Origin: Eledone cirrhosa
Lineage: Eukaryota
Assembly (NCBI GenBank): GCA_964016885.1
Contig: OZ024743.1
Location: 324,756,001-324,820,000 of the forward strand
Length of the DNA stretch: 64,000 nucleotides
Reading direction: 5' to 3'
Positions 4,657-63,285 of this stretch are shown here, piece by piece. Positions within the stretch are counted from its first letter, which is position 1. Every line of letters begins with the position of its first letter. The translations under genes were made by a program, and so were the position numbers. Below the pieces are notes generated by a model. It did not search any database. It worked only from the letters and a program-made list of their open reading frames with translations, and had not been told where the DNA came from.

Positions 4657-7293
4657 CTACAGGCTTATAAACAGAGAAGGCCAAATCACTCGGGTCATTT
4701 TCGCTTCATTGACCCACCTTTCAGTAAATTTACTGGGGTGCAGTGCCTCTATCGCCACTCTGATTCTCCTTCTAAAGTGATACTTAAAGAAGGGAATCAA
4801 TTGTTGTCCCGAGAGAAAGGCATCTGTCCTCAGTCCTCTCAACCTCGTCCACCATATAACTTCTTTCACCATAGCCACCGTACAGAGGAAAACCGCCTCT
4901 CTTTCGTTTTTGAAAGAGGCTGGCGGTTTGATACTTACTATGGACTCGGCAGTCAACTGGAATTGTCCCATACGCGACAGCAGTTGTCTTGCATAGTTCC
5001 ACAGGTCGGTTACGCCAGAGCAGTGTCCAATTGCGTGCAGGACGGTTTCAATGTCCTGCGCACATCTTGGACACGTCCTCTTGGAAGGATCCCTGCCGGG
5101 ACGTCCGTGCCTGTAGATCTTGTCACGAACCGGTAGAGCTCCTCGGTAGCACTGCCAGGCCAGGGACAACTGGAAGTTGTCCATAGGTCCCGGGTGGAAA
5201 GTCCTACCAAACAGGCTGGTGAGTTCATCGTCTTCGACGCCCAGAGTCTCTCCGAGCACGTCGTTGCCCTTGTAACGTACAATCCCTCTATAGAATGTCG
5301 AAGTGGAGTCTCCACTGATTGCTGTACCCACTTGCCAGAGGACTGTGAGCAACTGAGCGCTTCAATGTGCCAGGCGCCCATCATTTTCGGTTTTTTCTTG
5401 ACCCTCGCGCAGATGCTGGTGTGCATCGCCTCGATCCAGCCTCTGAACACGGGACCGAAACCGGCCGCCTTGAGAACCGCTTCAAAGTATCGATGGTCGA
5501 CCGTATCGAATGCCTTAGAATGATCCTAATTGATCAGAGCCCCACTGAAACCGGGTTTACTACCCACCATCTCTATGATGTATCGCATGAGGTGGAGGTT
5601 GTCGTGTATGGACCTGGTCGGGATTGCACACGTTTGCGCTTTCCCTACCAGATTCTCGACGACAAGCGCTAATCTCGTCGCTAGCACCTTGGCCAAAATC
5701 TTTAACTCTGTGTTGAGCAGAGTTATGGGCCTGAAGTTGTTTAGTTCGTCCTCCTTGTTCTCGTCTTTCCTGATCAGCGTTACTACGCCCTTGCCTGCAG
5801 AACTGGGAATTCTCCCGTTCTGCTGCCAATTGCAGTAGTCGGCTTCGAGGATGCCAGAGAACAAGTCTGGCATGCCTATGTAAAACTCATAGGGTAGACC
5901 ATCTAGACCGGGTGACTTGGGTTTACCGCAGCAGCCCAGAACGTCCCGTATCTCAGTGTCCGTGATCGGTCTTTCGCAGAACTCGGCGTCCGTGTTCGAG
6001 AGACGCGGCAGGCCGTCGAGGTATGAACTAAAGTCCATTGCCCCGTTCGGCTCACCATCGTTCTGCTCAAACAATTGCGCAAAGTGCTGCTGAAAGGCCG
6101 CGCACATTTGCTTGAGGTCAAGTAGCACGCGTCCGTTTTGGTCTTTCAAAGACCGAATCATGGACTTGTTGCCACTTTTTGCTTCCCCCACTCGGGCCCA
6201 GCTGACAGCTTTCGCTCCTTCGTTTCCTAGAGCACGTGTTTTGCTTCTGACCACGCAGCCTTCGTATTTCGCATCGAAGAACTGGTCCAGTGCCGTTCTC
6301 GATGCTAACACTCTAGTCGCATTGCCACTTCTAAGTGCCTCCTCTACCTTGGCTACTAGTTCTCTTTCTATTCTGTTTTTCTCTAAGGCTAACTCTCTGC
6401 TATACCCTATCGATTCTATTCTAATTGCTTTCTTGAGAGAGTACCACCATCTATTGTTGACGATGGCTCCCGTTAACTGTTGCTTGACTAGTCTATTTAT
6501 CCGTTCACTGTAAGCTTTACGTGCCGGCAACGACACGTTCAGCTTCCAGTATCCGGGTCCCTGTCTATGTGTTCTATCACGGTTGACTAAGCAGACGACT
6601 AATTTGTGATGTGAATAGGTAACCATGAGCATTCGTGGACAGCTTAACATCTCCTTGTCCCTTTCTCTAATGAAGAAGCTATCTAAATACGATCTAGATG
6701 TCCCGCTGCGGTTTGCCCACGTCCACTGTGGTGATGTAGGGAAATCCAGTCGATACCTATCGGCCAGTTGGAATTGGCCGATTAAAGTTTTGAGGCTGTT
6801 GCACCCCGCTCTACTGGGACATGCTCCCACATAGTTCCATTGTGCATCTAGGATACCATTCCAGTCCCCCATTAAAAGTAAGGAGCGAGACGTTCCCAGA
6901 AAAGACTCTAGACACTTAAAGAAGTCTGGCCGTGATTGCGATTGCCCGGTCGGGGCATAAACGGCCACCAGTCTGAAGGCTCCACCTCCAATACTGTTCA
7001 CGTCTAGGACTATCAGGTCTAGCCTCCGGGTCCAAGTGTACTTGTTGTACTTCGACGTCCAGGTTCTTCCGAAACATGACAGCCACTCCACCCTCACCTC
7101 CTGGCTGACAGAGAGATGCGTAGATCTCAAATTCGTCGAAGATGGGGCCTAGTTGCTGCCTGTTGTGGATCCTGGACTCGGTGATGGCTATCACATCCAT
7201 ACCGTGTGACCTAAGGTCGTTTAAAAGTTGGCCCTGTTTCCAGGGCATCCCTAGGCCACGCACATTCACGGTTCCAACTCGTAAGCTAGCCAT
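4657..7293 (-). pseudogene. ORF2 of LINE copy B (APE plus partial RT plus C-terminal zinc finger); RT catalytic core deleted at about 5405
   Basis: Starts MASLRVGTVNVRGL; GDWNG and NFRPITLLN present; CPRC...ETVLHA...C at the end. QG-LS and YADD motifs are absent across the junction near 5405. Confidence 0.9.
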
Positions 7294-7334
7294 GTTGGTG
7301 GAGAAGAGTTGGCGAAAAAGGGCGAAAGGTGCAC

Positions 7335-9226
7335 TTACCTTTTCGTTTCTTGGAGATCGGGTTGTTCAATCTCCATTTGGGTGCTGGATGGGGTGTTAGG
7401 TGGGGTGGGGAAACATTTTAACAGGACGCGGTTGAAAGGTTTCTGGCAGGGGTTGCCCACGTCCTGTGAAAATTTATTGTTTAGGTCATTATAGGTTTCC
7501 ATAGAAACCCTTATAAGTTTAAGGTGTGGAGACTATTCTGCCTTGACGAAAGTTTTGCCCTCCGTCTCCACCTTGGGGTTTGGGGAGATGACCTCCATCA
7601 AATTCTTGTTGTTTGTGTTGATGTATGCGTATTGTTGTTTGTTTTTGTTGTGTTGTTTTAGTTTGTTGTTCGTCCGGGAGTTTTCTTTTTATGGTGGGTG
7701 CTTGTGTTTGGGGTGGTGTTGGTGTTGGTTTTGCTGATAGGGGGATGTTTGACTGTGGTGTTGTTTGTGTTGTTGTTTGTGTCTGTGGTTGTGTGTTGGT
7801 GTTGGTGATTGGAGTTTTGTGGGTTTTGTGGTGTCTCTTTTTTTGTTTTTTAGATTTCCGCGGCTCTACCTCTTCTTCACTTGAAGGAGAAGCAGCTTCA
7901 TCCGTCGATAAATAATCATCGTCAGGTGTGTGGGGTAGGGGTATGTTGTGTGGTGGTGGTGTTTCGGTGTGTGTGTTTGTGGTAGTGTTTGATGGAGTGG
8001 GATGGGGTGGGGCTGTGTTCTTCAGGGGTGTTGTCTCAGTTTTTTCTGTTGTTGTTGGTTGAGTGTCTGTTTGTTTTGGTGTGGTTGCTCGTTTTGTCTG
8101 TCGTTGTACTTGTGGTAGTGGTGGTTGTTTTGGTGTTGGTGTTGGTAATAGTGTTTTTTTAATGTTGTTGTGTGTTTGTGGACAAGAGGCTTTTAGGTGT
8201 GCTGTGCTACCACAGCGAAAGCAATGAAATGTTTGTCCTTCTACCGAAATGTTTATTTTGTTGTTATCATCGATGACGACTCTTTCGGGTATTTTGGAGA
8301 TTCTCTCCGGTTTCATTTGCAACAGAATCTCCAAATCAGTACCCGCCCACCTTTGTCGAATAGATTTTCGTATCGAAAGAATCATATCAGTGTCTGGTTC
8401 TACGAAGCCAGCCAAGATCCACCAGATGTTAATGTTTGGGGGTATATATATATTTTTTTGTGTCCTTTTTCCCATGTATGTAGGGAAAATGGTGAATGCT
8501 TTTGACACCATTGGTGTCACAGAATGTTTTGGGGCGAGTGCCTCGCTTTTAAACAGTACGGAAACACTTCCGTACTGTTTTCCGCGCTGGAGAAAATCGA
8601 TATTTGCTAGAATTTCCTTGAAAGTAGCTTCTATATCTGCTTGGCAAACAAATGTCGGCTTTCTTGTGGAATTTGACAGTCCTAAAGGTGACTGATCTGC
8701 GAATTGTGTCTTCATTTATTTCAAGGGGTGAGTTAATTCTAAACCCACCTAATTCTTCGAAAGTTACAAATTTTCTCCCTTGCTGGAGCATATCTCTTGC
8801 ATTGGAGATATCAAGATTTATAAAATCTTGTTTTTTGTTCACTGTTTCAGCGAAAGACATTTTCTTTTTTTGTGTGGTGTTGCTGTTGTTGTTGTTGTTA
8901 TCGTTGTTAGCCTCGGTGTTGGAAATCTCAGTTCCTTGACGAGGTGAAACATTATGTGTAGATGTATCTGTGGAGTTGTTGATGTCTTTTTCATGTGTAT
9001 GTATGTTAATAGATTTAATTTCTTTGTTTTCATGTAGGTTAGTGTTATTTTTCTCCGCTTCGACGGTAGAAATTGTACAATTTTTGAGTGGTAAAATTTT
9101 TTCCTCTTTGTTGACAGTCGTATCTATGACGACGTCCATAGTAGCAGAAGCAGATATAACGTTAATATCTGCCTCTTTCTCTCTCTTTTCTCTATTGACG
9201 TTCTCCAGCGTTCTTGTGTTGTTCAA
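7335..9226 (-). pseudogene. ORF1 of LINE copy B (gag-like, CCHC zinc knuckle, Thr/Pro-rich tail), frameshifted
   Basis: Frames 8549-9226 and 7519-8715. Knuckle CFRCGSTAHLKASC aligns with CFHCGSKTHLRAFC in copy C ORF1. Confidence 0.85.
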
Positions 9227-9610
9227 GTTATTTAGTTTATAAAATTTGATATTTTAAAACAATTTTAAATAAAATAAAATGTTCGCCCCTAAAGGGACGA
9301 AAAATGGGATTACCACCCAGCTGACAATTCAGCTTGGGGGTTAATCTACAAAATAATATGTTTTTTCAAACAATTTGTTCTGTTTTTCGTATATAAATTT
9401 AGAAAAAATCTTACCGGCGATGTTTCACGCGTCAGACAGAAAGATAGATAGATAGGAGCTCGTTATCGTGAGTAACCATCTCAGTCCCGATCGAAGAGCA
9501 GCCTGTATATATCAGCTTACGATCTTCAATCTGTCGGGCAATAGATCCTGGGTCTAAGGTTGACTTCACTAGGCTGCTGCTGGAGAATACCGCTGCGGAT
9601 CACATTTCTT

Positions 9611-22867: not shown

Positions 22868-23319
22868 ATGTATGTATGTATGTATGTATGTATGTATGTA
22901 TGTATGTATGTATGTATGTATGTATGTATGTGTGTGTGTATGTATGTGTGTGTGTATGTGTGTATGTATGTGTGTATGTATGTATGTATGTATGTATGTA
23001 GGTAGGTAGGTATGTATGTATGTATGTATGTGTGTGTGTATGTATGTGTGTGTGTATGTGTGTATGTATGTGTGTATGTATGTATGTATGTATGTAGGTA
23101 GGTAGGTATGTATGTATGTGTGTATGTAGGTACGAATGTATGTATGTGTGTATGTGTGTATGTATGTATGTATGTATGTATATATGTATGTATGTAGGTA
23201 GGTAGGTATGTATGTATGTGTGTATGTAGGTACGAATGTATGTATGTGTGTATGTGTGTATGTATGTATGTATGTATGTATGTATGTATGTATGTATGTA
23301 TGTATGTATGTATGTATGT
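22868..23319. repeat. Compound (TATG)n microsatellite (also at 23925-24410, 30575-30800 and 31188-31462)
   Basis: Read directly from the sequence. Confidence 0.95.
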
Positions 23320-23925
23320 CAGGTCACCAGTTGGTGCTACTGGTAACATGTATCCCAGTACAACCTGTCCCATGGTCGGGTCGTTGGCGACTAAACTGGC
23401 AACCCCACCAAGGTTTCTTGGTGAGGAGGGTGACTTTGGACATCCTGCAGGACTAAAAACAAAACCTGTCAAAGGGCAAAGGAGCTCTTAAGAGTCAATG
23501 GCCATCCAAAATCACCGGGAGAGATGACCCCTTAGCCTTTGTCACGGCAGAATTCTAGGAGAAGGAAAACTCTGATATAACACCTGCAACCCTGATGGTA
23601 TCCAATGATGTTGACTTGTTCTTCTTTTTGGTAAATATCATCTTGGTTAAGAGAGTGGGACTGGCTTTGTGCAGTGCCTTTGCTCACTATAAAAGCTTCA
23701 CAGCACAGGCATTGCTTTATATCTGGAGATCTCTCTGCTTGTCGTCACATGGTACCATGGGCCCAGCACTATGTGTCAATAATTGTCACAAGTGTAGTGT
23801 TTGTACCAGAGTTTTCAAGTCGCTGGCTGGACTAAAAAGTCACACTCGTTCAGCGCATCAGTAGGGGTTCTCCTACATGGATATAAAGTAGTGGCCGTAC
23901 TCGAAAACGAGTTGGCAGCCACCAT
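23320..23925 (+). mobile_element. Non-autonomous RTE-derived element (about 600 bp) in (TATG)n, longest copy
   Basis: Near-identical copies at 25415, 30805 and 46829. The 3' part encodes CSVCTRVFKSLAGLKSHTR, an RTE-type C-terminal C2H2 finger, followed by a stem-loop and (ATGT)n tail. Confidence 0.75.
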
Positions 23926-24407
23926 GTATATATGTATGTATGTATATATGTATGTATGTATGTGTGTATGTATGTATGTATGTATATATGTATGTATGTA
24001 TATATGTATGTATATATGTATGTATGTATGTGTGTATGTAGGTACGAATGTATGTATGTGTGTATGTGTGTATGTATGTATGTATGTATGTATGTATGTA
24101 TGTATGTATGTATGTAGGTAGGTAGGTAGGTATGTATGTATGTGTGTATGTAGGTACGAATGTGTGTATGTGTGTATGTATGTATGTATGTATGTATGTA
24201 TGTATGTATGTATGTATGTATGTATGCATGTATGTATGTACGTATGTATGAATGCGTGTATGTGTGTGTGTATGTATGTATGTATGTATGTATGTATGTA
24301 TGTATGTATGTGTGTGTGTATGTATGTAGGTACGTATGTATGTATGTATGTATGAGTGTAAGTATGTATGTAGGTATATATGTACAAATGTATGTATGTA
24401 TGTATGC

Positions 24408-25307: not shown

Positions 25308-25343
<36 letters not shown>

Positions 25344-25414
25344 TGTATGTATGTATGAATGTATGTATGTATGTATGTATGTATGTATGTATGTATGTAT
25401 GTATGTATGTATGT

Positions 25415-25997
25415 ACATGTATCCCAGTACAACCTGTCTCATGGTCGGGTCGTTGACAACTAAACTGGCAACCCCACCAAGGTTTCTTGGTGAGGAGGGT
25501 GACTTTGGACATCCTGCAGGACTAAAAACAAAACCTGTCAAAGGGCAAAGGAGCTCTTAAGAGTCAATGGCCATCCAAAATCACCGGGAGAGATGACCCC
25601 CTTAGCCTTTGTCACGGCAGAATTCTAGGAGAAGCAAAACTCTGATATAACACCTGCAACCCTGATGGTATTCAATGATGTTGACTTGTTCTTCTTTTTG
25701 GTAAATATCATCTTGGTTAAGAGAGTGGGACTGGCTTTGTGCAGTGCCTTTGCTCACTATAAAGGCTTCACCGCACAGGCATTGCTTTGTATCTGGAGAT
25801 CTCTCTGCACTTGTCGTCACATGGTACCATGGGCCCAGCACTATGTGTCAATATTTGTCACAAGTGTAGTGTTTGTACCAGAGTTTTCAAGTCGCTGGCT
25901 GGACTAAAAATTCACACTCGTTCAGCGCATCAGTAGGGGTTCTCCTACATGGGTATAAAGTAGTGGCCGTACTCGAAAACAAGTTGGCAGCCACCAT
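25415..25997 (+). mobile_element. Non-autonomous RTE-derived element, copy 2
   Basis: Near-identical to 23347-23925; flanked by (TATG)n. Confidence 0.8.
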
Positions 25998-26018
25998 GTA
26001 TGTATGTATGTTTGTATG

Positions 26019-26045
<27 letters not shown>

Positions 26046-26050
<5 letters not shown>

Positions 26051-30779: not shown

Positions 30780-30804
30780 CATACATACATACATACATAC
30801 ATAT

Positions 30805-31187
30805 GTCAAGGCAGAATTCTAGGAGAAGGAAAACTCTGATATAACACTTGCAACCCTGATGGTATCCAATGATGTTGACTTGTTCTTCTTTTTGGTAAAT
30901 ATCATCTTGGTTAAGAGAGTGGGACTGGCTTTGTACAGTGCCTTTGCTCACTATAAAGGCTTCACGGCACAGGCATTGCTTTGTATCTGGAGATCTCTCT
31001 GCACTTGTCGTCACATGGTACCATGGGCCCAGCACTATGTGTCAATAATTGTCACAAGTGTAGTGTTTGTACCAGAGTTTTCAAGTCGCTGGCTGGACTA
31101 AAAAGTCACACTCGTTCAGCGCATCAGTAGAGGTTCTCCTACATGGGTATAAAGTAGTGGCCGTACTCGAAAAGTTGGCAGCCACCA
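30805..31187 (+). mobile_element. Non-autonomous RTE-derived element, 5'-truncated copy 3
   Basis: Near-identical to 23540-23925; (ATGT)n tail. Confidence 0.8.
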
Positions 31188-31385
31188 TGTATGTATGTAT
31201 GTATGTATGTATGTATGTATGTATGTATGTATGTATGAATGTATGTATGTATGTATGTATGAATGTATGTAAGTATGTATGTATGAATGTATGTATGAAT
31301 GTATGTATGTATGTAAGTATGTATGAATGTATGTATGTATATATGTATGTATGCATGTATGTAAGTATGTATGAATGTATGTATG

Positions 31386-31416
<31 letters not shown>

Positions 31417-31595
31417 GTAAGTATGTAAGTAAGTATGTATGTATGAATGTATGTATGTATGTTTGCGATTTATCTGGAGCGAAAGAAAATAAAATGGAGA
31501 AAAATAGCGATGGCGTTGGAGAAACAATAGATAAGAAGGGGGGAAAAATCAAGGAAAAATAAAAAAAAAGGAAAGAAAGAAAGATAGAAAGAAAA

Positions 31596-34894: not shown

Positions 34895-35840
34895 GTATAT
34901 ATATATATATAAAAGAAAACTTTCGCTCTACATGGCTGAATATAATAAATGTAATCTGAGTTTTTCGAATATTAATAATAACATTCGATTCGTTTGCAAT
35001 TATGCAAACAAGCCTCAATTTTATAGCCATGTCAGTAGAATGAACCCTTCATTCTTGTTCTTGTGTTGGCATGTGAACAGAACTGCAGACACTACTATTT
35101 CTGGGTATCACCCTTCATCAGTGCAGCTTACTGTGCACCTGCCAAACTGTCAGAGCTAGTAAAAATATATGCTATTTTCAAGTTCTGTTGCAAACGAAAC
35201 GAATTGCACAAGAGCAAGAATGAAGGGTTCATTCAGTACACATTGAGACATAACAAAACAGCGAGAGACAAGTTATGCCCTCGGGCAAATTACACAAATA
35301 TAGAGTGCGCAACGGCTTAGCCAAGGGAGAAAAAAATATATAGAAAGAAGAGAAATAGTAAAACAGAAGAGAATAATAAGGATTATAGTCCAATGTGCAG
35401 ACAAAGAAGAAGGACACTGAGGCGTAGAAAGGGTAAGGGAGGAATATATATATATGAGATGTTGAAATACAAATACAGATTCGCTACAATGATAATAGCG
35501 TTAGAAAATCGGGTAAATTGCCCATATAATCACTTATTTTCTGTCTTTAAGTGTATTTTAACAGATTGTCTTGCCTTGTCTTTTTCTCCACTGACAGCGC
35601 TTTCGTTTGTGTCAGACACTGTGACCCCAATGGACCAGCAGTAACGTTGAGGGGGCTCTAAACTGCCAGAAGTCTATCTCGACGGCTTAAGACCTTGGAA
35701 TTCTGTGTCTTTTGTTTGTATTTATTTTTTCAAAAAAGATTTTTTGAAGGTTTCCCCTTAAAATCTTTTTTTTTTTCGTTTTGCTTTGTTTTCGTTCGTT
35801 GTCTTCTCTTTGTTAATTTTCCTAAGTTTATATATATACA

Positions 35841-36281
35841 TAATAATATATGTAGTAATAAACACAGTAAATCGGGTGTCTAAAATTACTAGGGTTGAAA
35901 TACCACGTTGGTTTGAGAAATTTAACCAGAAGCAAACGGAAAATACAGAATTGTGTTTGTAACAGATAATCCGTGGGCATCATCAGCGAGAGAATTAGAT
36001 TAAATGTGACAAGTACCTAGCGCTAAAAGCCACACGAATGAACATTTCACCTAATCTAATTCTCTCGCTGATGATGCCCACGGATTATCTGTTACAAACA
36101 CAATTCTCAGGGCGAAACAGATTAAATATCTAATCTGTCCGGGAGGTGTAATAGTTATTGAGACGGTCTGTATATTTTCTGTATTTTCCGTTTGCTTCTG
36201 GTTAAATTTTTCAAACCAACGTGGTATTTCAACCCTCGTAATTTTAGACAAGATTTACTGTTTGTTACTACATATATTATT
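35841..36281. mobile_element. Head-to-head fold-back element carrying a complete hammerhead in the right arm
   Basis: Left arm 35841-36003 is the reverse complement of 36052-36281, with about 70 bp deleted. Confidence 0.85.
36061..36146 (+). ncRNA. Complete canonical type I hammerhead ribozyme; predicted cleavage after GUC at 36139
   Basis: Stem I TCTCTCG/CGGGAGG; CTGATGA 36068-36074; T; stem II GCCC/GGGC with a 30-nt loop; GAAA 36114-36117; stem III ACAGATTA/TAATCTGT; GTC triplet. Confidence 0.88.
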
Positions 36282-36284
36282 ATA

Positions 36285-36447
36285 TAATTGTTTCTACTTT
36301 TAGCACAAGGCCAGCAATTACCAGTGTATTACTGGTACTTTATTTTATCGACCCCGTAAGGATGAAAGGCAAAGTTAACCTCGGCGGGATTTGAACTCAA
36401 ATCTTCAAAGCATGGCGCCCGACCCTCTACCGATACTGCCAATCCAC
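36285..36447 (-). mobile_element. OR-like/Meta SINE (short subtype)
   Basis: Family core and B-box present. Confidence 0.8.
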
Positions 36448-36546
36448 ATTATATAATGCTCAGTATTTATACTTTGAGCTTGTTAATTACAGGGTATCAA
36501 TAAGATTTATTAACTCTGCTTTTTATTTGTATATATATATATATAT

Positions 36547-40567: not shown

Positions 40568-40607
<40 letters not shown>

Positions 40608-40609
<2 letters not shown>

Positions 40610-40896
40610 CGAAGGAATTGTGGTAAGGAACCAGATGGACCATAACGCACCAAAGTACTCAATACTTAGGGTAGTAGAGTGGGTAATAGGAACAAGTATG
40701 ACCCCGACGGCAGAGCTCAAGCCGTTTCGACGGCTAATTCTGGACTCCAGAATTCTGAGTCTAGAATTAGCCGTCGAAACTGCTTGAGCTCTGCCGTCGG
40801 GGTCATACTTGTTCCTATTACCCACTCTACTACCCTAAGTATTGAGTACTTTGGTGCGTTATAGTCCATCTGGTTCCTTACCACATTTCCTTCGTT
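40608..40896. repeat. Near-perfect spacerless 289-bp palindrome flanked by (TA)n
   Basis: Centre at GAATTC 40750-40755. A single-arm copy lies at 51563-51692 and a fragment at 48017-48042. Confidence 0.95.
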
Positions 40897-41286
40897 ATAT
40901 ATATATATATATATATACACTATGATGATGATGGTTGAAACTTGAAACTTGATTTCTAGTAATGCCATCGCTTGATATTTAAGCATGTGCATCACGGACG
41001 TGGCTCTTTAGTCCTGTGTATGAGTGTATGTGTGTGCGTGTGCGTAAGTGTGTGTGTGTATGTGTGTGTGTGTGTGTGTGTGTGTAAGCACTATGTTAGT
41101 CTTTTTTTTCTGTCCTGTACAGAATAAATTAATTTTGAAAAACCGCATTATTAAATATGTCGGTATGAGTTTGTATCAACACTCGTGAAAAATGTGGTTT
41201 TCATACATTTGTACATATTGATATATACATTACGAAACACACACACACACACACACACAAACACACATATTTATATATATATATAT

Positions 41287-46743: not shown

Positions 46744-46828
46744 TATTCATACATACATACATATATATATATATGTGTGTATGTATATATATATATATAA
46801 ATACATATATATATACATATATACATAT

Positions 46829-47375
46829 ACATGTATCCCAGTACAGCCTGTCTCATGGTCGTTGGCGACTAAACTGGCAACCTCACCAAGGTTTCTTGGT
46901 GAGGAGGGTGACTTTGGACATCCTGCAGGACTAAAAACAAAACCTCTCAAAGGGAAAAGAAGCTCTTAAGAGTCAATGGCCATCCAAAATCACCGGGAGA
47001 GATGACCCCTTAGCCTTTGTCAAGGCAGAATTCTAGGAGAGGGAAAACTCTGATATAACACCTGCAACCCTGATGGTATCCAATGATGTTGACTTGTTCT
47101 TCTTTTTTGTAAATATCATCTTTTTGGTAAATATCATCTTTTTGGTAAATATCATCTTTTTGGTAAATATCTGGAGATTTCGCTGCACTTGTCGTCACAT
47201 AGTACCATGGGCCCAGCACTATGTATTAATAATTGTCACAAGTGTAGTGTTTGTACCAGAGTTTTCAAGTCGCTGGCTAGACTAAAAAGTCACACTCGTT
47301 CAGCGCATCGGTAGGGGTTCTCCTACATGGATATAAAGTAGTGGCCGTACTCGAAAACGAGTTGGCAGCCGCCAT
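46829..47375 (+). mobile_element. Non-autonomous RTE-derived element, copy 4, with an internal 18-bp tandem expansion
   Basis: Homologous to 23347-23925; TTTTTGGTAAATATCATC is repeated at 47103-47170. Confidence 0.8.
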
Positions 47376-47474
47376 GTATGTATATATATAAGGAAATCAC
47401 CAGGATTAAATTACATGAAATTATTTAATTGATTTACGAACGTTTCTATCAATACTGTGTTATCAGCTGATCTA

Positions 47475-49153: not shown

Positions 49154-49877
49154 CTGTTAGACACGCAGTGACTAACAACAGAATGTTTTAAGTCTGCATG
49201 TCTGACAATATATGCGTAGCTTGTGAATAAAATATTCAAGGGGTATTGCTGGCCGTGGCGATTCCTTCCAAACATATTTTGTAATGTATCGTCTTATTGG
49301 CTAATCAACCAACGAGATTAATTGTTGCTCAAAAGCGTTTTGTTTGCACTTTTATTTATCGTTTCGCTTTCGAATCTCTCTTCCGTATTTTGTCGTTTTA
49401 TCATCAAAATATTTTTCTCATTTTGGTAAGTTATATTGTTAATTTATATATGATTTTTTAAATTCATATTAACTATTTTTTTTTCAATTCGTTATAACAT
49501 GCTTATAATATCGGTTGTATCATATTTACTTGTATATATGTCCATATTATTGTTCGTTTTATGTTAGATTATTTTATTATTATTATGTTAGATTATTTTT
49601 TTAATTATTATGTTAGACTATTTGTATGTAATATTTAATTTTTATTAATTCAACTATAACAATTATTATGTAAAATATATTTATTTAATATTGATTGTTT
49701 TTGTAGCTGTTTATATTAAAAGTCTGAAAATATTTTTATACATCATACAATAATATTTATAAGATCATTTATAAAATAAAAATTATATAATCTAATTACA
49801 TAACAACGATACTTTATTATTAATATATATCATGTTTAACTAGAGTTATTACAAGCGTTGCCTTAAAAAAATATTAA

Positions 49878-50324
49878 ACTAGACCTGAAAAATGCGCAAG
49901 CTCAAAAGTGCCACAGAATGTTATAATAAACCTTCAAAAGTGTGGGACTAGATTTGTTGCTCAAAAATATTGTAATCATTATCTATCGTACACTCTGTGG
50001 CATCCTTTTATAAAAAAGAGACTCATAACGAACTCAAGACGACACGATAGTTATTTAAGTGAATTTATAATATAGAATGCGGTTTAAGTGCATTTCGTAT
50101 TAATCATTACTAAACATCTAATATGAGATATTGAACATTAGCTTAAATAATTATCGTGTCGTCTTGAGTTCGTTATGAGTCTCTTTTTTTATAAAAGGAT
50201 GCCACAGAGTGTACGATAAATAATGATTACAATATTTTTGAGCAACAACTCTAGTCCCACACTTTTGAAGGTTTATTATAACATTCTGTGGCTCTTTTGA
50301 GCTTGCGCATTTTTCAGGTCTAGT
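49878..50324. mobile_element. Fold-back/MITE-like element with about 182-bp arms and an 82-bp spacer
   Basis: ACTAGACCTG...TTTAAG (49878-50059) is mirrored by CTTAAA...CAGGTCTAGT (50142-50324). Confidence 0.85.
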
Positions 50325-50350
50325 ATATATATATGTTTATATATATATAC

Positions 50351-55387: not shown

Positions 55388-57452
55388 ATGGCTACGAAAA
55401 AGAATTTTCATAGGTCACTCCCACTCATTCCGTCTTCTTCTTCCTCAATCCTCACTACAGCAGAGAGAAGATTGTCTCTCTCCCTCCCTTCTCTTTCGCA
55501 AGCGACGACAGAAAAGAAAAGTCTCGTGCAAAGCGTGCAAGATTTCTCCACGACGACGACGACAACGACGAAAAAGGTGTGCGGGAAATACGAAAACCCA
55601 TTTCATTCGTCTGACGTCAGGAATAATAGCAGTAGCAGCCGTAATAACAACAGCAACAGTGACAATGAAAACAACAGTAGCAGCCGCATCAGCAGCAGCA
55701 TAAACAACAACAGCATTAGCAGCAGCAGCAACAACAACAACCACAGCAACAGCGGCGGCGGCAGTAGTCGGAGTACCTGCATCAACAACAAAAGTAACAG
55801 CAGCTCTGACGACAACAACAACAACAACAGCAGCAAATAAAAACCAATCTCGTTTGCAGGTATCGCGAAGAACCTGGAAACCATCCTCATAAAAAATGAG
55901 GAATTAGAGGAAGCGAAGAAGATGGTGACAAAAACTGGACACCGAGCAATCTGCAAGGCAGCGGAAAAATTTTTCGAAACCCAACAGCACTGTACGGTCA
56001 CGTACCGTACAGTAAGTACAAAATCCCGTAGGGTTGAAAGAGCCACAGAGGCTCAAATACAAAAAGCCTTGGGGTCTATGTGGCAGCGGAAAACGCACAT
56101 CACCCGAGGCAAGAAATATGCCACCGTAGACGTACTTTTTGCCACACCCCAGGAGGCAAAGGCTCAATCCTTAGTGACCCTAAGGAGCGAGGAAATGGTG
56201 TTGGTGCCCTCCTACTGCGGGCAAAAAATTGTGAGGGTAAAACTGACCCACGTCCCCCCTGGGATGGCCCCTTCTTGGCTGGCCGCGTCTGTCCTCGTCG
56301 GAATCGAGGACAAAACAACTGTACTGCAAGTACAGAAAAAAGTAAGAGAAGATTGGGTCGGCACCTCCATTGAGATGTTAATCCAAACCAACCAGGAGTG
56401 CATCGAAGCTATCCCGGATGTGATAGACTTCGATAACGGCACTCAACTGCCCATAAGTGTTGAGGGCAAACGCCCGAAATGCTTTCACTGTGGATCGAAG
56501 ACTCACCTCAGGGCCTTCTGCAACGAGAAGACCCTGAGAAAGGAGAAAACCCCCCTCCTTCCGAAACCGGCTCCACCGCTACCAGCAACAGGACAAGCGG
56601 CAACCAGGAACGATAGGTCTGTGGCACCTATACCCACGCCACGGAAATCAAAAACAGCAGCAGCAGTGCAAGTATTAACAACAACAACAGCAATACCAAA
56701 TGCAGCTGCAACAGAGACTCCAGTACAAACATCACCAACAACATCAAGTGAAAGAGTGGAGCTGGTACTCCTCCCCGACCTCACAGAATCAGACATGGCG
56801 TGGGAGAGGGATGGCAAAAGGTCGTAAGAAGGCACAAACGCAGAAGCAGCGCATCGTCGCCTTTGAAAAGGGAGGAAAGAAATGAAAAAAGGGTAAAGTC
56901 TACTGCAAAGAGACTCACAGCAGCAACACCACCAACACCATCACCACCCACACTAGCACCACCATCACCACCGGCGACAACCCACCGCCAACAACACCTT
57001 CAACACCACCACCACAAGCACCAATATCGCAAACACAACAACAAAACACACACACCCAGCAACAACGACAAGAAAATAGCAGAACCACACCCCACCCCCA
57101 GAAAAACAAATGCACGGCGATAAATACACACAACAAGAAACTAATGACTTACATAATTGAACACACAGACATTTCACAACACGACTACATAATACCAGCA
57201 CCAATCAAAACGCCAACTAACATAAGACTGCTAAAAATAGCACAGAAACAATACACAAACATTAAAACGAAATTCCCCAACGCAGTTGGTGATTTCAGAG
57301 ACCTAGGAGGAACTATCAACCGAAGAGTATATTCGGACATACTCATAGAAGAGCCGACGACCAGCCGAAGGGACTATTCAACGGTCCCTTCACCAGACGA
57401 TCAAGTGAAAAGGGATGGAAAAACCACCCCTCCTCTACGAAAAGTACGGTAA
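55388..57452 (+). pseudogene. ORF1 of LINE copy C (Asn/Ser-rich N-terminus, CCHC knuckle); in-frame stop at 55838 and later frameshifts
   Basis: Frames 55355-55840 and 55922-56827 are in the same phase; CFHCGSKTHLRAFC; ends ...RKVR-stop at 57452. Confidence 0.85.
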
Positions 57453-57487
57453 GTGGTCTTTCCCATCTTTTCCACTCTATTTTAAAC

Positions 57488-60400
57488 ATGACCTCACTCA
57501 GAATAGGCAGCATAAATGCGCGTGGCTTGGGGTCGTCATGGAAGCAGGGTTCTCTGCTCAACGACCTCAGGTCACTAAACATAGATGTAGTGGCCATCAG
57601 CGAGACCAGAATCTCCGAAGCACGGGCCTTCGCACCGATCTTCGGCGGCTACGATGTGTACGCATCTCCCAGCCGTCCTGGATCGGGGGGGATGAGTTGC
57701 TGTGCTTTTTCGGAGAGGTTTGGATCTCGCCATACGGGCCATCTTCCTGGACCCAGAGGGTAAGTTGGTGGTGCTGGACGTGACCAGCGGAGACGGACAA
57801 GCTTTCAGGCTAGTGGCCGTCTATGCCCCGACAGGAGCAGGGCGGCCTGATTTCTTCCGGCGTCTGGAGACCTTTCTTGGAACGTCCCGATCTTTAGTGT
57901 TAGTGGGCGACTGGAACGGGATCTTAGATGCACGCTGGGACTGTGTGGGATTAGAAGATAGGGGTGGAGGGTTCAAGAGCCTCACCAACCTGCTCAGGCG
58001 TTTTTAACTGTCTGACAGGTAGCGATTGGATTTCCCGAATGTGCCAATGTGGACTTGGATAAATCGCATAGGGTCATCCAGATCATATCTAGATAGAGTA
58101 TTTTGTAGGGAAATAGATAGGTCTAGCATAGGCTGTCCACAATTCAAGATAGTCAGCTACACGGACCACAAATTCGTGATCTGTGTGCTTGACTTAGATA
58201 GGCTTCATAGACGAGGACCCGGCTACTGGAAGCTAAACGCGTCCTTACCAAGGCGCAAGGCCTACAGAGACCGGATTAGCGAACTAGTTAAGCGGGCGTT
58301 GACGGGGGCCATCGTCAACAACAAGTGGTGGTTTGCTCTGAAAAGAGCGATTAGAATAGAATCGATTAGGTTTAGTAAGGCTTTAGCAATAGAGAAAAAT
58401 AGAGCAGAGGGAGAACTAGTTAGAAAATTAGACGAGGCGCTTAGCAAAGGCATTGCGACCGACGTGCTTGCGGCGAAATTGGCCCTTGACCAATTCTTCA
58501 ATGCAAAGCACGAAGGCTGCGTTGTCAGAGCTAGGGTGCGTGCTCTCAGACACGAGGGGACGAAAGCCGTTCAATGGGCCCGAGTGGCGGAGGCGCGTCG
58601 TGGCAACAAAGCCACGATCCGGTCTTTGGTGGACCACGACGGGCGCATGCTACTCGATCCCGGGAAAATGTGTGAAGCTTTTCAGCGACACTTCACTCAG
58701 CTGTTCGGGGGTGGCGGTGGGCCGGGTCGAGGGATGGACTTTAGTGTCTACCTCGACGGACTGCCGCGGCTCTCGGCCACTGAGGCGGAGTGTTGCGAAA
58801 AGCCGATAACAGCCGCTGAAGTAAGGGAGGCAATGACTGGCTGCACAAGGGGTAAATCGCCTGGTTTGGATGGTCTGCCCTATGAACTTTACGTACAGAT
58901 GCCAGACTTGTTCGGAGACCTCTTGGCGGACGTCTACTGCAACTGGCAACAGAACGGGAGAATTCCTAGTTCTGTGGGCCGAGGAGCGGTGGCACTGCTG
59001 AGAAAGGATCCGAACAAGGGGGATAACATAGATAATTTCCGGCCCATAACTCTGCTAAACACAGAGTTCAAGATTTTGGCCAAGGTGCTAGCAAAGAGGT
59101 TGGCGCTTGTCGTTGGTGGTCTGGTGGGAGAGGCGCAGACATGCGCCATTCCCGACAGATCCATCCACGACAACCTCCACCTCATGCGATACATCGTAGA
59201 GAGGGTAGCTAGGGAACCTGGAACGGGTGGGTCCTTGATCAATTTAGATCAGTCGAAAGCTTTCGATAGGGTCGACCATCGTTACCTAGCGACAGTCCTG
59301 AGGGCGGCTGGCTTTTGGCCCGTCTTCAGAGGCTGGATCGCTGCCATGCACAGCGACATCTGCTCTGTGGTGAGAGTGAACGGTCACCTTTCGGAACCGT
59401 TCAACATCATGCGCTCGGTCCGCCAAGGATGTCCCCTCTCGTCCCTCTTGTACGTATTGACTCTCAAGCCATTACTGCACAAACTGGAGACGTTGAGGGG
59501 CGTCCCGCGCGAACTAGGATGCGGAAGATCCGTGTCAGCATATGCGGACGATGTCACCGTAGTGGTGTCGAACACCAAACACATCGAGGCGATCGGCACT
59601 ACACTAAGAGAATACGAAGCGGTGACAGGAGCAATGATCAACCAGGAAAAGTCAGTGGGCCTGCAGCTCGGCACATGGAGAGGCAGGTCCATGCCGTCCA
59701 ACAGCGTCGTCGGACGCTGGACGGACGGACCGGTTAAATTGCTAGGGGTCTGGTTTGATCCGGACCTCCAGACGGACAAAAAATGGGACGAGGGGACGAG
59801 CAGGGTGGCTTCTCTCACCCAGAAATGGGCGGAGAGGAAGCTATCCCTGAAAGGTCGAGCGGAGGTGGCTAACGCATACATCGCGTCTGTCATCTGCTAC
59901 CGCCTGACCGTCGTACCTTGTCCTAAGCCTCGCCTGACTGCGCTGGAGCGTTTGCTCTTTCACTTTTTGTGGAAGGGACGCGCTCCGATGGTCAGGCGGT
60001 CCATCTGTTGTCAACACCCGCTACGTGGAGGGCTGGGCATGCCGTGGCTGATGATGCGCAGGCACGCGCTCAGGCTACGACATCTCCACCTCTTCCTCGA
60101 CGGTGATCAGGTGTGGTCGCCGTTTGCTAGACACGTATTTCCCCAGCTCGTTTCCTTGACGGAGCTGCAGTCCTGGGTCAAGCGAAGACAGAGAGGGAGC
60201 GCCTGGAGACTGGAATGTCTTCAGGCGCTCACAGCCCTCGACCAATCGGGCAATGTGATCGGTGGAAAATCCACCTCGGCGTTCTATAGAGGATTAGTGG
60301 AGGGGAAGAGCGACGACGTACTTGGGGAAACTCTAGGCGTCGACGAAAATCAACTAGCCAATCTCTTCGGAAGAACTTTCGGGCCAGGGCCTATGGACAA

Positions 60401-60908
60401 CTTCCAGAAATCCCTGGCCTGGCAGTGCTACCGAGGAGCCTTGCCAGTTCGGGATAAACTCTACAGGCATGGAGGTGCCGTCAGCCGGGAATGTCCGAGA
60501 TGCGCGCAGGGCGACGAAACCGTCCTGCACGCACTCGTCCAGTATCCGAAAATTGCTGACTTGTGGGTTTATGTCGAACACCTGCTGTCGCGTTTAGGAC
60601 GGATCCGGCTATCATCTGAGTCCACCGTGAGGATTGCCCCGCCCTCCTCCTTTAGCCGGGAAGGGCAGGCAGTTTTTATCTGTCTGGTGGCCATGGCGAA
60701 AGAGATAGTATGGTGGACACGTTTGAAAGGGCTGAAGACGAGCACTTACCTCTTCGGTGATGCTCTGATTGACTTTTTCAAATTTCATTTGAAAAGGAAA
60801 ATCAGAGTAGAGAGGGAAGTGCTCTCTTCCCAGCATTTTGTTGAAAGATGGGTGAGAGAAGCAAGAATGGCCTGAGTGAATGGGCCTACTCTGAGTATAT
60901 ATCTGTAA
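57488..60908 (+). pseudogene. ORF2 of LINE copy C (APE endonuclease, reverse transcriptase, zinc finger); 949-aa open segment 58026-60875
   Basis: MTSLRIGSINARGL, VGDWNG, TDHK, LDQSKAFDRV, RQGCPLS, AYADD and CPRC. Frameshift near 57700; stops near 58005, 58020 and 60873. Confidence 0.95.
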
Positions 60909-61171: not shown

Positions 61172-63285
61172 GTTCTTTGAGTCTCAGTCATTGATGTTAG
61201 TTAACTGGAAAGTTTGTTGAAATGAATATCAAGCCACTACTTGCAGCCTCAGATATTCAGGACGTATCGGAGGGTTCTTGCTGTTCCCAGCAAGCATGCC
61301 TTTTGAGGTGTTCCAAAAAGCGGGGCGGGCCCAATTTTCTTTAACCATACCTGGAAACTTTTTAAGATAGTACCTAGTGCGCCTATGACAATCTGACACT
61401 TTGACTTCATGGCAGTTCCAAATCCTTTTTACCTCCCACTTTAAGTCCTGGTATCGGTTAATTTTCTCCCTCTCCTTCTCTTGCACTCTCGTGTCAAATG
61501 GGCAGGCTACATCCACAATCAGGCACGATCTTTTTTCCTTGTCCAAAACCACCAGGTCAGGTCTATTGTGTTCCAGTTTCTTGTCCGTCTGTATCCTAAA
61601 ATCCCACAGCACCTTCACCTGATCGTTTTGTATCCCCGACTCTGGCTTATGCTCATACCACTTCTCAGAATGTGGTAAATTGTTTACTTTGCATGGGTGC
61701 CAGTGGATCACCCTGTCCATCACATCATGTCTCCAGCCTTTATAGTGAGTCTGGGCTAGGTGTTTACACTCGGATACAATGTGAGCCACAGTCTCCTCTC
61801 TCTCGCCACAGATCCTACAAAGTGAGCTAGCCTCCTCCTTGTAAATATGTAAATATGGTGTTTCAACCACTTCGTTCTGAGGGCCTGCTCTTGCGCAGCC
61901 ATTAGCATTCCTTCTGTAGCCTTTTTAAGGTCTCCTCTTTTTAACCAGTTCCATGTCTGTGGATCTCTAAATTCAGTTTTCTCAAAGAAGGTACTATGAA
62001 GGGATTTTTCATGAAGGTTGCTCTTCCTCCTTGTTGTTATTTTCTCCTTGGACATCTCCTCGTCTATTGTCCTCTCCTTCAGTACAATTCTGAGCATTGG
62101 CTCCCTACTGTCAGTCACGTATTTGTGCAGGTTGTTTTTCTCCATCTGAACACAGTCCTCTATGCTGATAAGACCTCTTCCACCTTCAGATCTCTTTAAA
62201 TAGAGTCTATCGACATCACTCCTCTTGCGGAACATGTTGTAGACAGTCAATAGCTTCCTAGTCTTCCTATCCATTTCTTTTTGTTCAGCAACATTCCATT
62301 TCAGAATTCCCGCACTGTACCTAATAATAGACACAGCTCGGGAATTCACTGCACTTATGACATTCCTACTATTTAGATGTGATTTTAATACGCTCCTTGC
62401 TCTCCTAATGTACTCAGATCTTATCAATTCCTTCATTTTTTTTGTTCTTGATGTCATCTGCCTCCAGAACACCTAAATATTTGTATCCTTCTTCAGTGTC
62501 AAATTCCTTTATCATCTCACCTGTTGGTACCTGGATTCCGTTGCTTCTGCTCAATTTACCCCTCTTCATCACTAGGACTCCACACTTATTAATACCAAAT
62601 TGCATACATATATCATTGCTGAAAATACGGACAGTGTCAACAAGTACATCCAACTCATTCTCACTCTTCCCAAAGAGTTTAAGATCGTCCATGAAGAGAA
62701 GGTGGTTGATGATAAGCTCTCCTTTTCCCAACTTGTATCCTGCTCTCACTTTTCGCAGTATAATGGTCAGGGATATCAGGGCAATGACAAACAGAGGAGA
62801 CAAACTATCTCCCTGGAAGATACCTCTCTTGATCTTCACGCCTCCCAAGGATTCTCCAGCTGATGTTAACTCTGTTTTCCAGGACTTCATACTTTTGCTC
62901 AACAACTGTCTGATGTTATCTGCCACCTTGAAGATCTCTAGACTTTTGGTGATCCACGAATGAGGCACCATGTCGAATGCCTTTTTGTAGTCTATCCATC
63001 CCATGGCAAGATCAGTGTGTCTCCTCTTGCAAATCCTCATTACCATCTTATCAATAAGTAACTGGTCCTTTGTACCACGGGACTTCTTTCGGCATCCTTT
63101 CTGTTCGTCCGGTAACGAGTTGTTTGTGTGGAGGTGATGGTAGATTTCCTCAGACACAATGCTTGTCAACAGTTTCCACATTACGGACAGACATGTGATA
63201 GGTCTATAGTTGGTAACATCATTACCAGAACTGTAGTACCTTTTGTCAACCACTCTGGTACCTCACCCGACATCAAGCAATCATT
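61172..63285 (-). mobile_element. 5'-truncated R4/Dong-like non-LTR retrotransposon (RT, CCHC, restriction-like endonuclease), frameshifted
   Basis: NYRPITCL, WIDYKKAFD, GIFQGDSLSP, LFMDDLK, CRICGEREETVAHIVSEC, RPDLVV...IVDVACP, KINRYQDL. Flanked by (TAA)n on both sides. Confidence 0.9.

Follow-up and report, generated by a model that had tools for sequence, protein, structure and literature searches.

The enzymes that move animal retrozymes have so far been argued for from co-occurrence and sequence likeness. Metazoan non-LTR retrozymes, as defined in the main text of Cervera and de la Pena (2020; PMC7229834), have units of ∼170–400 nt, and the main text of a more recent study presents retrozymes as non-autonomous Penelope derivatives, with pseudo-LTR homology in Xenopus (Li, Clavereau & Pollet, 2026; 10.64898/2026.07.22.740005). 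Among the hammerheads of Penelope pseudo-LTRs, dual motifs 100–700 bp apart on opposite strands are reported (Cervera & de la Pena, 2014; PMC4209133). Insertions of Penelope-like elements are described as including partial tandems and, next to the 5' end, a second copy that is inverted and 5'-truncated, with a bias towards microsatellites (Craig et al., 2021; PMC8557442); head-to-head is given as the most frequent arrangement of their copies, and microhomology deletions, which are common, and antisense small RNAs are also reported (Arkhipova et al., 2013; PMC3846280). In vitro, hammerhead cleavage is reported to be dispensable for insertion, with both strands cut and extended and AT-rich ATT sites preferred (Frangieh et al., 2024; PMC11167929).

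The locus described here, in a 64-kb window of the Eledone cirrhosa genome (the whole stretch of 64,000 nucleotides that was analysed), is one insertion of a dispersed non-coding retrozyme family with a 463-nt unit. No description of such a family was found in the octopus, cephalopod and inverted-repeat retrozyme literature, the supplements of PMC7229834 and 10.64898/2026.07.22.740005 lying outside that scope. The setting is one of microsatellites and LINE-type reverse transcriptase (RT) remnants: LINE-type elements occupy 55841–60875 (plus strand), 5526–9253 (minus) and 61229–63262 (minus), with a 950-aa open RT frame at 58023–60875, and self-inverted stretches are present at 49864–50339 (88% over 488 nt) and 40587–40917 (97% over 332 nt).

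A type I hammerhead ribozyme motif lies at 36061–36146 on the plus strand, with predicted cleavage after C36139. Sequence and pair list place the CUGAUGA core at 36068–36074, and the core set is complete (C3, U4, G5, A6, N7, G8 and A9; G12, A13 and A14; A15.1–U16.1; H17). Stem I, the open helix, has 7 bp (36061–36067/36140–36146), two of them G–U pairs; stem II is GCCC/GGGC (36076–36079/36110–36113) and closes a 30-nt loop II; GAAA is at 36114–36117, stem III has 8 bp (36117–36124/36131–36138) and the GUC site is 36137–36139. This agrees with the first-pass annotation, which had claimed every core nucleotide, the GUC site and these same lengths for stems I, II and III, and adds one extra U, at 36075 after A9, that was absent from its description. 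The same annotation expected a monomeric fold for 36061–36146. The active fold is indeed the predicted minimum-energy fold of 36050–36160 (z = -1.88; nine of 200 shuffles equally good), with pair probabilities of 0.84, 0.97 and 0.96 for the three helices; in longer arm-free contexts the predicted probability of stem I comes down to 0.11–0.59. A strict hammerhead descriptor matched the window once, at this motif, against a background mean of 0.017 matches per 64 kb in 60 block shuffles, and found no minus-strand ribozyme in the 64 kb. The Rfam hammerhead families gave no match to the motif at the gathering score or at E ≤ 10, the likely cause being the 30-nt loop II.

The ribozyme belongs to one of two element copies that face each other. 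Alignment with L003, a natural copy, resolves the minus strand from 36052 to 35840 as continuous unit sequence covering positions 97 to about 387, apart from one gap. On the plus strand, 36052–36529 corresponds to the unit from position 148 through to its end and carries an insert of 159 nt. Neither copy has unit positions 1–96. The inverted, minus-strand copy is made up of a 5' part at 36003–36052 (unit positions 97–147 by in-frame alignment with L003), a middle part at 35951–36002 that is antisense to the stem I 5' strand, CUGAUGA, the stem II 5' strand and loop II and is identical to the direct copy at 52 of 52 positions, and a 3' part at 35840–35950 (unit positions ∼273–387) that differs from 36177–36283 by three substitutions and two two-base indels. 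The direct copy, 5'-truncated at unit position 148, starts at the head-to-head junction with a 1-nt overlap and covers 36052–36288 (plus strand); the unit 3' segment follows at 36448–36529 (plus strand) and ends at TTTTATTTG, and a 31-nt pattern for this segment has 338 genome matches with ≤1 mismatch. Between the two stands an insertion at 36289–36447 with a 10-nt duplication, ATTATATAAT, which we take to be SINE-like and place on the minus strand from its AT-rich tail. The segment 36003–36051, which had been regarded as a spacer between the arms, adjoins the 5' side of the ribozyme in many other copies in the opposite orientation. Because it matches the upstream unit segment on the minus strand, the true arm is 35840–36052 and nothing separates the two copies. 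The supposed spacer is a piece of the element in reverse, and the locus therefore consists of two 5'-truncated copies set head to head within a (TA)n run.

The inverted arms match at 35947–36002/36052–36107 (100% over 56 nt) and 35877–35950/36177–36250 (97% over 74 nt), and pairing reaches 35840/36283. The antisense arm had been said to lack roughly 70 bp over GAAA and stem III. This loss is real: 73 nt, equivalent to 36104–36176, are missing from the upstream arm, and with them went the stem II 3' strand, GAAA, stem III, GUC and the stem I 3' strand. The gap is flanked by TTCT repeats, with the microhomology at 35947–35950 (minus strand), and the deletion is private to the locus, its junction having a single match in the whole genome with up to two mismatches allowed. 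An intron behind the gap was rejected, GT–AG ends being absent in any register on both strands. The copy pair sits inside the (TA)n tail of an older, unrelated dispersed repeat of ∼275 nt, recognized from genome matches at 35565–35828, and the target run survives on the left at 35829–35838 and on the right at 36530–36546; no classical target-site duplication is readable inside it at this locus. The host repeat gave 1985 candidates, and among the 40 scored the full-length matches have 77–83% identity; the repeat has fixed ends and a (TA)n tail. Its seven inspected 3' ends mostly run into AT/TA repeats, and no hammerhead core was seen in 13 aligned copies.

A search of the 3.0-Gb genome with 36003–36290 gave 1868 candidates; the long matches among the 40 scored have identities of 86–95%. 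An exact pattern for the ribozyme 3' half matched the genome 207 times and its reversed control not once. The unit length of 463 nt was read from a natural tandem, the GC content is 34–36%, no RT or GIY-YIG reading frame lies within the unit, and the reading frames over the window copy have no Pfam match. When 41 ends of the 3' segment were scored, 13 continued into the next unit, 20 ended in (TA)n and eight were other; at a second end site ∼70–80 nt earlier, 78 ends comprised 20 in (TA)n, 24 that run on, 13 that then meet a SINE tail and 21 others. The alignment contains two subfamilies that keep the core; N7 distinguishes them, as does the number of bases separating stem II from A9 (one or two, or three in L043). 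L032, L095, L125 and L126, on three contigs, have in common 2.6 kb that are 94% identical and enclose the same partial tandem of the retrozyme; the ribozyme therefore travels there inside a larger repeat. At 33 of 107 loci a SINE-like repeat has entered the unit at one and the same palindromic, AT-rich site, with 31 insertions in the same and five in the opposite orientation, and the varied far ends and both orientations point to independent insertions at a hot spot. The sequence of the insertion at the window locus recurs in 17 blastn pieces within the window and has very high depth in DNA contigs. Contigs assembled from two runs of a single sample fall short of spanning either junction of the locus.

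Inverted arms were surveyed at ∼80 of the 207 ribozyme-pattern matches (contigs 1, 2 and part of 3), amounting to 73 sites, 70 of them independent. Removed before counting were L008 (a duplicate of L005), L095, L125 and L126 (flanks common with L032) and, as overlaps repeating earlier sites, L019, L031, L037, L052 and 16 loci of the 3'-segment search. An automatic rule found a head-to-head arm at 45 of the 70 independent sites, which is a lower bound, as the rule missed the arms of L030 and L022. Two full ribozyme spans on one strand occur at only four of the 70; head-to-tail units are in this way present in the family, and the window locus holds a single ribozyme. Among the 62 sites with a full-span ribozyme, 18 are armless, the arm misses the ribozyme at 26, both arms hold a full ribozyme at nine and the overlap is partial at nine. 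Full spans on both arms were seen at L043, L045, L092, L117, L023, L057, L097, L098 and L121; a transcript that enters such a site from either side would, by prediction, have its downstream ribozyme blocked. Skips of ≥25 nt within a copy were found at five of 107 loci; at two of the five, L014 and L159, core parts are lost as well. At L046 an inverted arm skips the entire ribozyme, as judged by eye. A comparison with other genomic copies, with and without the arm, had been suggested; it bears out the arm as a recurrent feature, but the exact deletion geometry occurs at this locus only.

The 107 loci contain 65 junctions, the 130 ends of which cover the whole unit with no fixed position. They are not enriched at the cleavage site (four of 130 at unit positions 235–242, with about two expected), and the junctions therefore hold no genomic trace of in vivo cleavage. 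This absence would fit the in vitro findings given in PMC11167929, which may also offer a route to two opposed copies.

In folding predictions the active fold costs 0–2 kcal/mol without the arm and 66–71 kcal/mol with it, the probability of stems I and II then being 0. The proposal that a read-through hairpin would sequester the ribozyme gains support from this RNA fold comparison. For its counterpart, that transcripts starting in the spacer would self-cleave, the prediction is divided: RNAs starting at 36004 pay only about 1 kcal/mol for the active fold, yet the probability of stem I is just 0.11–0.17 and the start would lie inside reversed element sequence. Folding of 71 sites gave 46 intact ribozymes at 40 sites. 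As short RNAs, 40 of the 46 take the active fold at a cost within 3 kcal/mol, and with 450 nt of upstream flank ten of the 46, at seven of the 40 sites including the window, are predicted to be blocked by 66–129 kcal/mol. A block at seven of 40 sites is thus a common outcome of insertion geometry, and the silencing at the window locus would be an accident of that geometry, common to about one-sixth of the sites with an intact ribozyme.

Like the metazoan non-LTR retrozymes of PMC7229834, as described in its main text, the family has a short non-coding unit with a GC content below 45%, a type I hammerhead of canonical size, tandems and many dispersed copies, in a host genome that also holds coding Penelope-like elements. 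It departs from them in its unit length, which is above their ∼170–400 nt, in being mostly solo or partial-tandem and in its 30-nt loop II and 8-bp stem III; the families described from corals and mussels have more tandems, and the main text of PMC7229834 does not mention inverted copies. The retrozymes set out in the main text of 10.64898/2026.07.22.740005 resemble it in length (51–972 bp), in their many monomers and in the co-occurrence of coding Penelope-like elements. Pseudo-LTR homology of the kind given there for Xenopus was not found here, and the insertion geometry provides independent support. Under the rule of that study, that two units with ribozymes are needed, the window locus is not an active copy; with one ribozyme only there would be no release of a unit by double cleavage, and the copy is therefore likely to be a dead end.

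The insertions agree with those described for Penelope-like elements (PMC8557442, PMC3846280) in 5' truncation, partial tandems, the inverted copy, a head-to-head junction with a small overlap, a microsatellite target and microhomology deletions. In contrast to those elements, the unit has no RT or GIY-YIG frame and no matching coding element appeared in 50 loci. As to the 30–40-bp tail on one end of Penelope-like insertions, two recurrent 3' ends ∼70–80 nt apart were observed in this family. A GIY-YIG search of the genome returned 10,596 candidates, of which 150 were scored and 50 loci read (two overlap). Both RT and, C-terminally, a GIY-YIG domain (each at E ≤ 0.001) were found in four of seven long frames tested, including that of L172, and two of the Penelope-like loci, L167 and L176, are themselves head-to-head inverted pairs. 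Penelope-like reading frames of up to 938 aa are seen at L162 (3809–6622, minus strand), L165, L166, L172, L176 and L177; in several of them the stop is followed, after ∼400 nt, by hammerhead-like motifs of minimal form. The 463-nt unit was found in none of the 50 loci by blastn, descriptor or covariance model, so the coding partner is one that we infer and did not find there.

The observed family, unit length, tandem and inverted layouts, target and private deletion are, in our judgement, quite probably to be read as follows: two 5'-truncated copies of a 463-nt hammerhead repeat were laid head to head into a (TA)n run in one insertion by a Penelope-like RT with a GIY-YIG endonuclease acting in trans, and 73 nt were lost via TTCT. 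Transcripts of tandem source copies would be cleaved by their own hammerheads to give RNA of unit length, perhaps in circular form, which Penelope-like proteins would copy back in trans. The head-to-head pair was likely laid down in a single insertion, and the inverted copy likely lost its 73 nt afterwards, or during copying, through the TTCT microhomology. In plus-strand read-through RNA the arms are then predicted to pair as a hairpin of ∼160 bp, silencing the ribozyme.

The strongest competitor, which we nevertheless consider unlikely, takes the unit as the solo pseudo-LTR of a coding Penelope-like element missed by sampling, instead of a self-standing retrozyme. The insertion pattern is the same as that of coding elements, and with 10,596 candidates and 50 loci read, such an element could have been missed. 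The motif also resembles the pseudo-LTR hammerheads described in PMC4209133 in being type I, in its G10.1–C11.1 pair and in the extra, unpaired base between A9 and G10.1 that is typical of Penelope hammerheads. The animal motifs described there, however, are minimal forms in which helix III is small or absent and which perform poorly alone, while in the present motif helix III has 8 bp and a monomeric fold is predicted; the hammerhead-like motifs seen behind coding elements in this genome are likewise minimal and of other sequence. Against a pseudo-LTR stand, further, the tandems, in which the 3' end of the unit runs directly into its own 5' end, and the first 30 loci, which have no shared upstream extension.

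Function was considered on two scales. On the broader, which we hold improbable, head-to-head insertion would be a family-wide fuse, with the ribozyme silenced in about one-sixth of intact copies, hairpins at most sites, copies tolerated in transcribed DNA and double-stranded RNA (dsRNA) fed against the family, while the arm at this locus would have been kept as a true read-through switch. On the narrower, the locus would be a selected cis-antisense off switch that protects long transcripts and lets those starting in the spacer cleave themselves, as the first-pass annotation had proposed; we think this very unlikely. The large predicted folding contrast speaks for it, as does the part of the arm facing the ribozyme, which is 100% complementary over 52–56 nt. 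The latter was rejected as a sign of selection, since such a run is within chance given the divergence of the distal arm (p = 0.08–0.19). An arm is usual among the independent sites, junctions have no fixed position, the deletion is private, the geometry is unrepeated among the sites and the supposed spacer is reversed element sequence, and a built-in switch finds no support in any of these. Nor is there a host exon among the 109 reading frames of the 9.3–55.3 kb interval, five of which have Pfam matches at E ≤ 0.01, all below the curated cut-offs. Two zinc-finger matches were rejected as a host gene, being copies of a repeat; four repeat copies, at 23236–23976, 25315–26048, 30804–31462 and 46761–47390, have an end that encodes a single C2H2-like finger and are likely the 3' ends of a LINE. 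A promoter scan was at chance level, the scan being bacterial and not meaningful for an animal genome, and a tRNA scan of the DNA gave no hits. With the arm at about two-thirds of sampled sites, it is likely a by-product of Penelope-type insertion and not an evolved switch; that any off-switch effect is incidental is the most likely reading.

Sequence variation bears on the ribozyme itself. Variants at the level of lineages are seen at N7 and at the extra base. They occupy none of 11 core columns and two of 36 stem columns, pairing being preserved in both cases, and three of 36 loop columns, so that loops vary about as little as stems; outside, the figure is 83 of 339 columns. This set is biased by the ribozyme-based search pattern. 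In 42 loci not chosen on the ribozyme, variants occupy four of 47 columns against 70 of 339 outside, a weak signal (Fisher p = 0.049). Across the alignment 98% of cells are paired; two-sided change is seen in one of 19 pairs, and the covariation score was reached by 48 of 500 shuffles and thus is not above them. Modest support follows from these comparisons of sequence for a ribozyme that may have been kept intact in the source lineages, and not at the window locus.

A chance slighter still than that of the selected off switch attaches to the hairpin as a source of dsRNA that silences the family, the inverted insertions being the host's handle on it. At 45 of 70 sites hairpins could form upon read-through, and antisense small RNAs from Penelope copies are described in a rotifer (PMC3846280), but such silencing would follow from the insertion pattern and gives no reason for this particular locus. 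Least credible of all is a DNA transposon of the miniature inverted-repeat kind, or a fold-back duplication of later date, in which a hammerhead was included by chance: the inverted arms are long and look terminal, but their ends differ between copies, a third of the sites are armless and direct tandems exist.

The preferred reading, an insertion laid down in trans by Penelope-like proteins, gives the family its wider interest. A non-coding family with a head-to-head copy at two-thirds of its sampled sites lends structural support to Penelope mobilization of retrozymes and provides a testable substrate for it. It would also supply an animal hammerhead of the monomer type whose loop II is unusually large.
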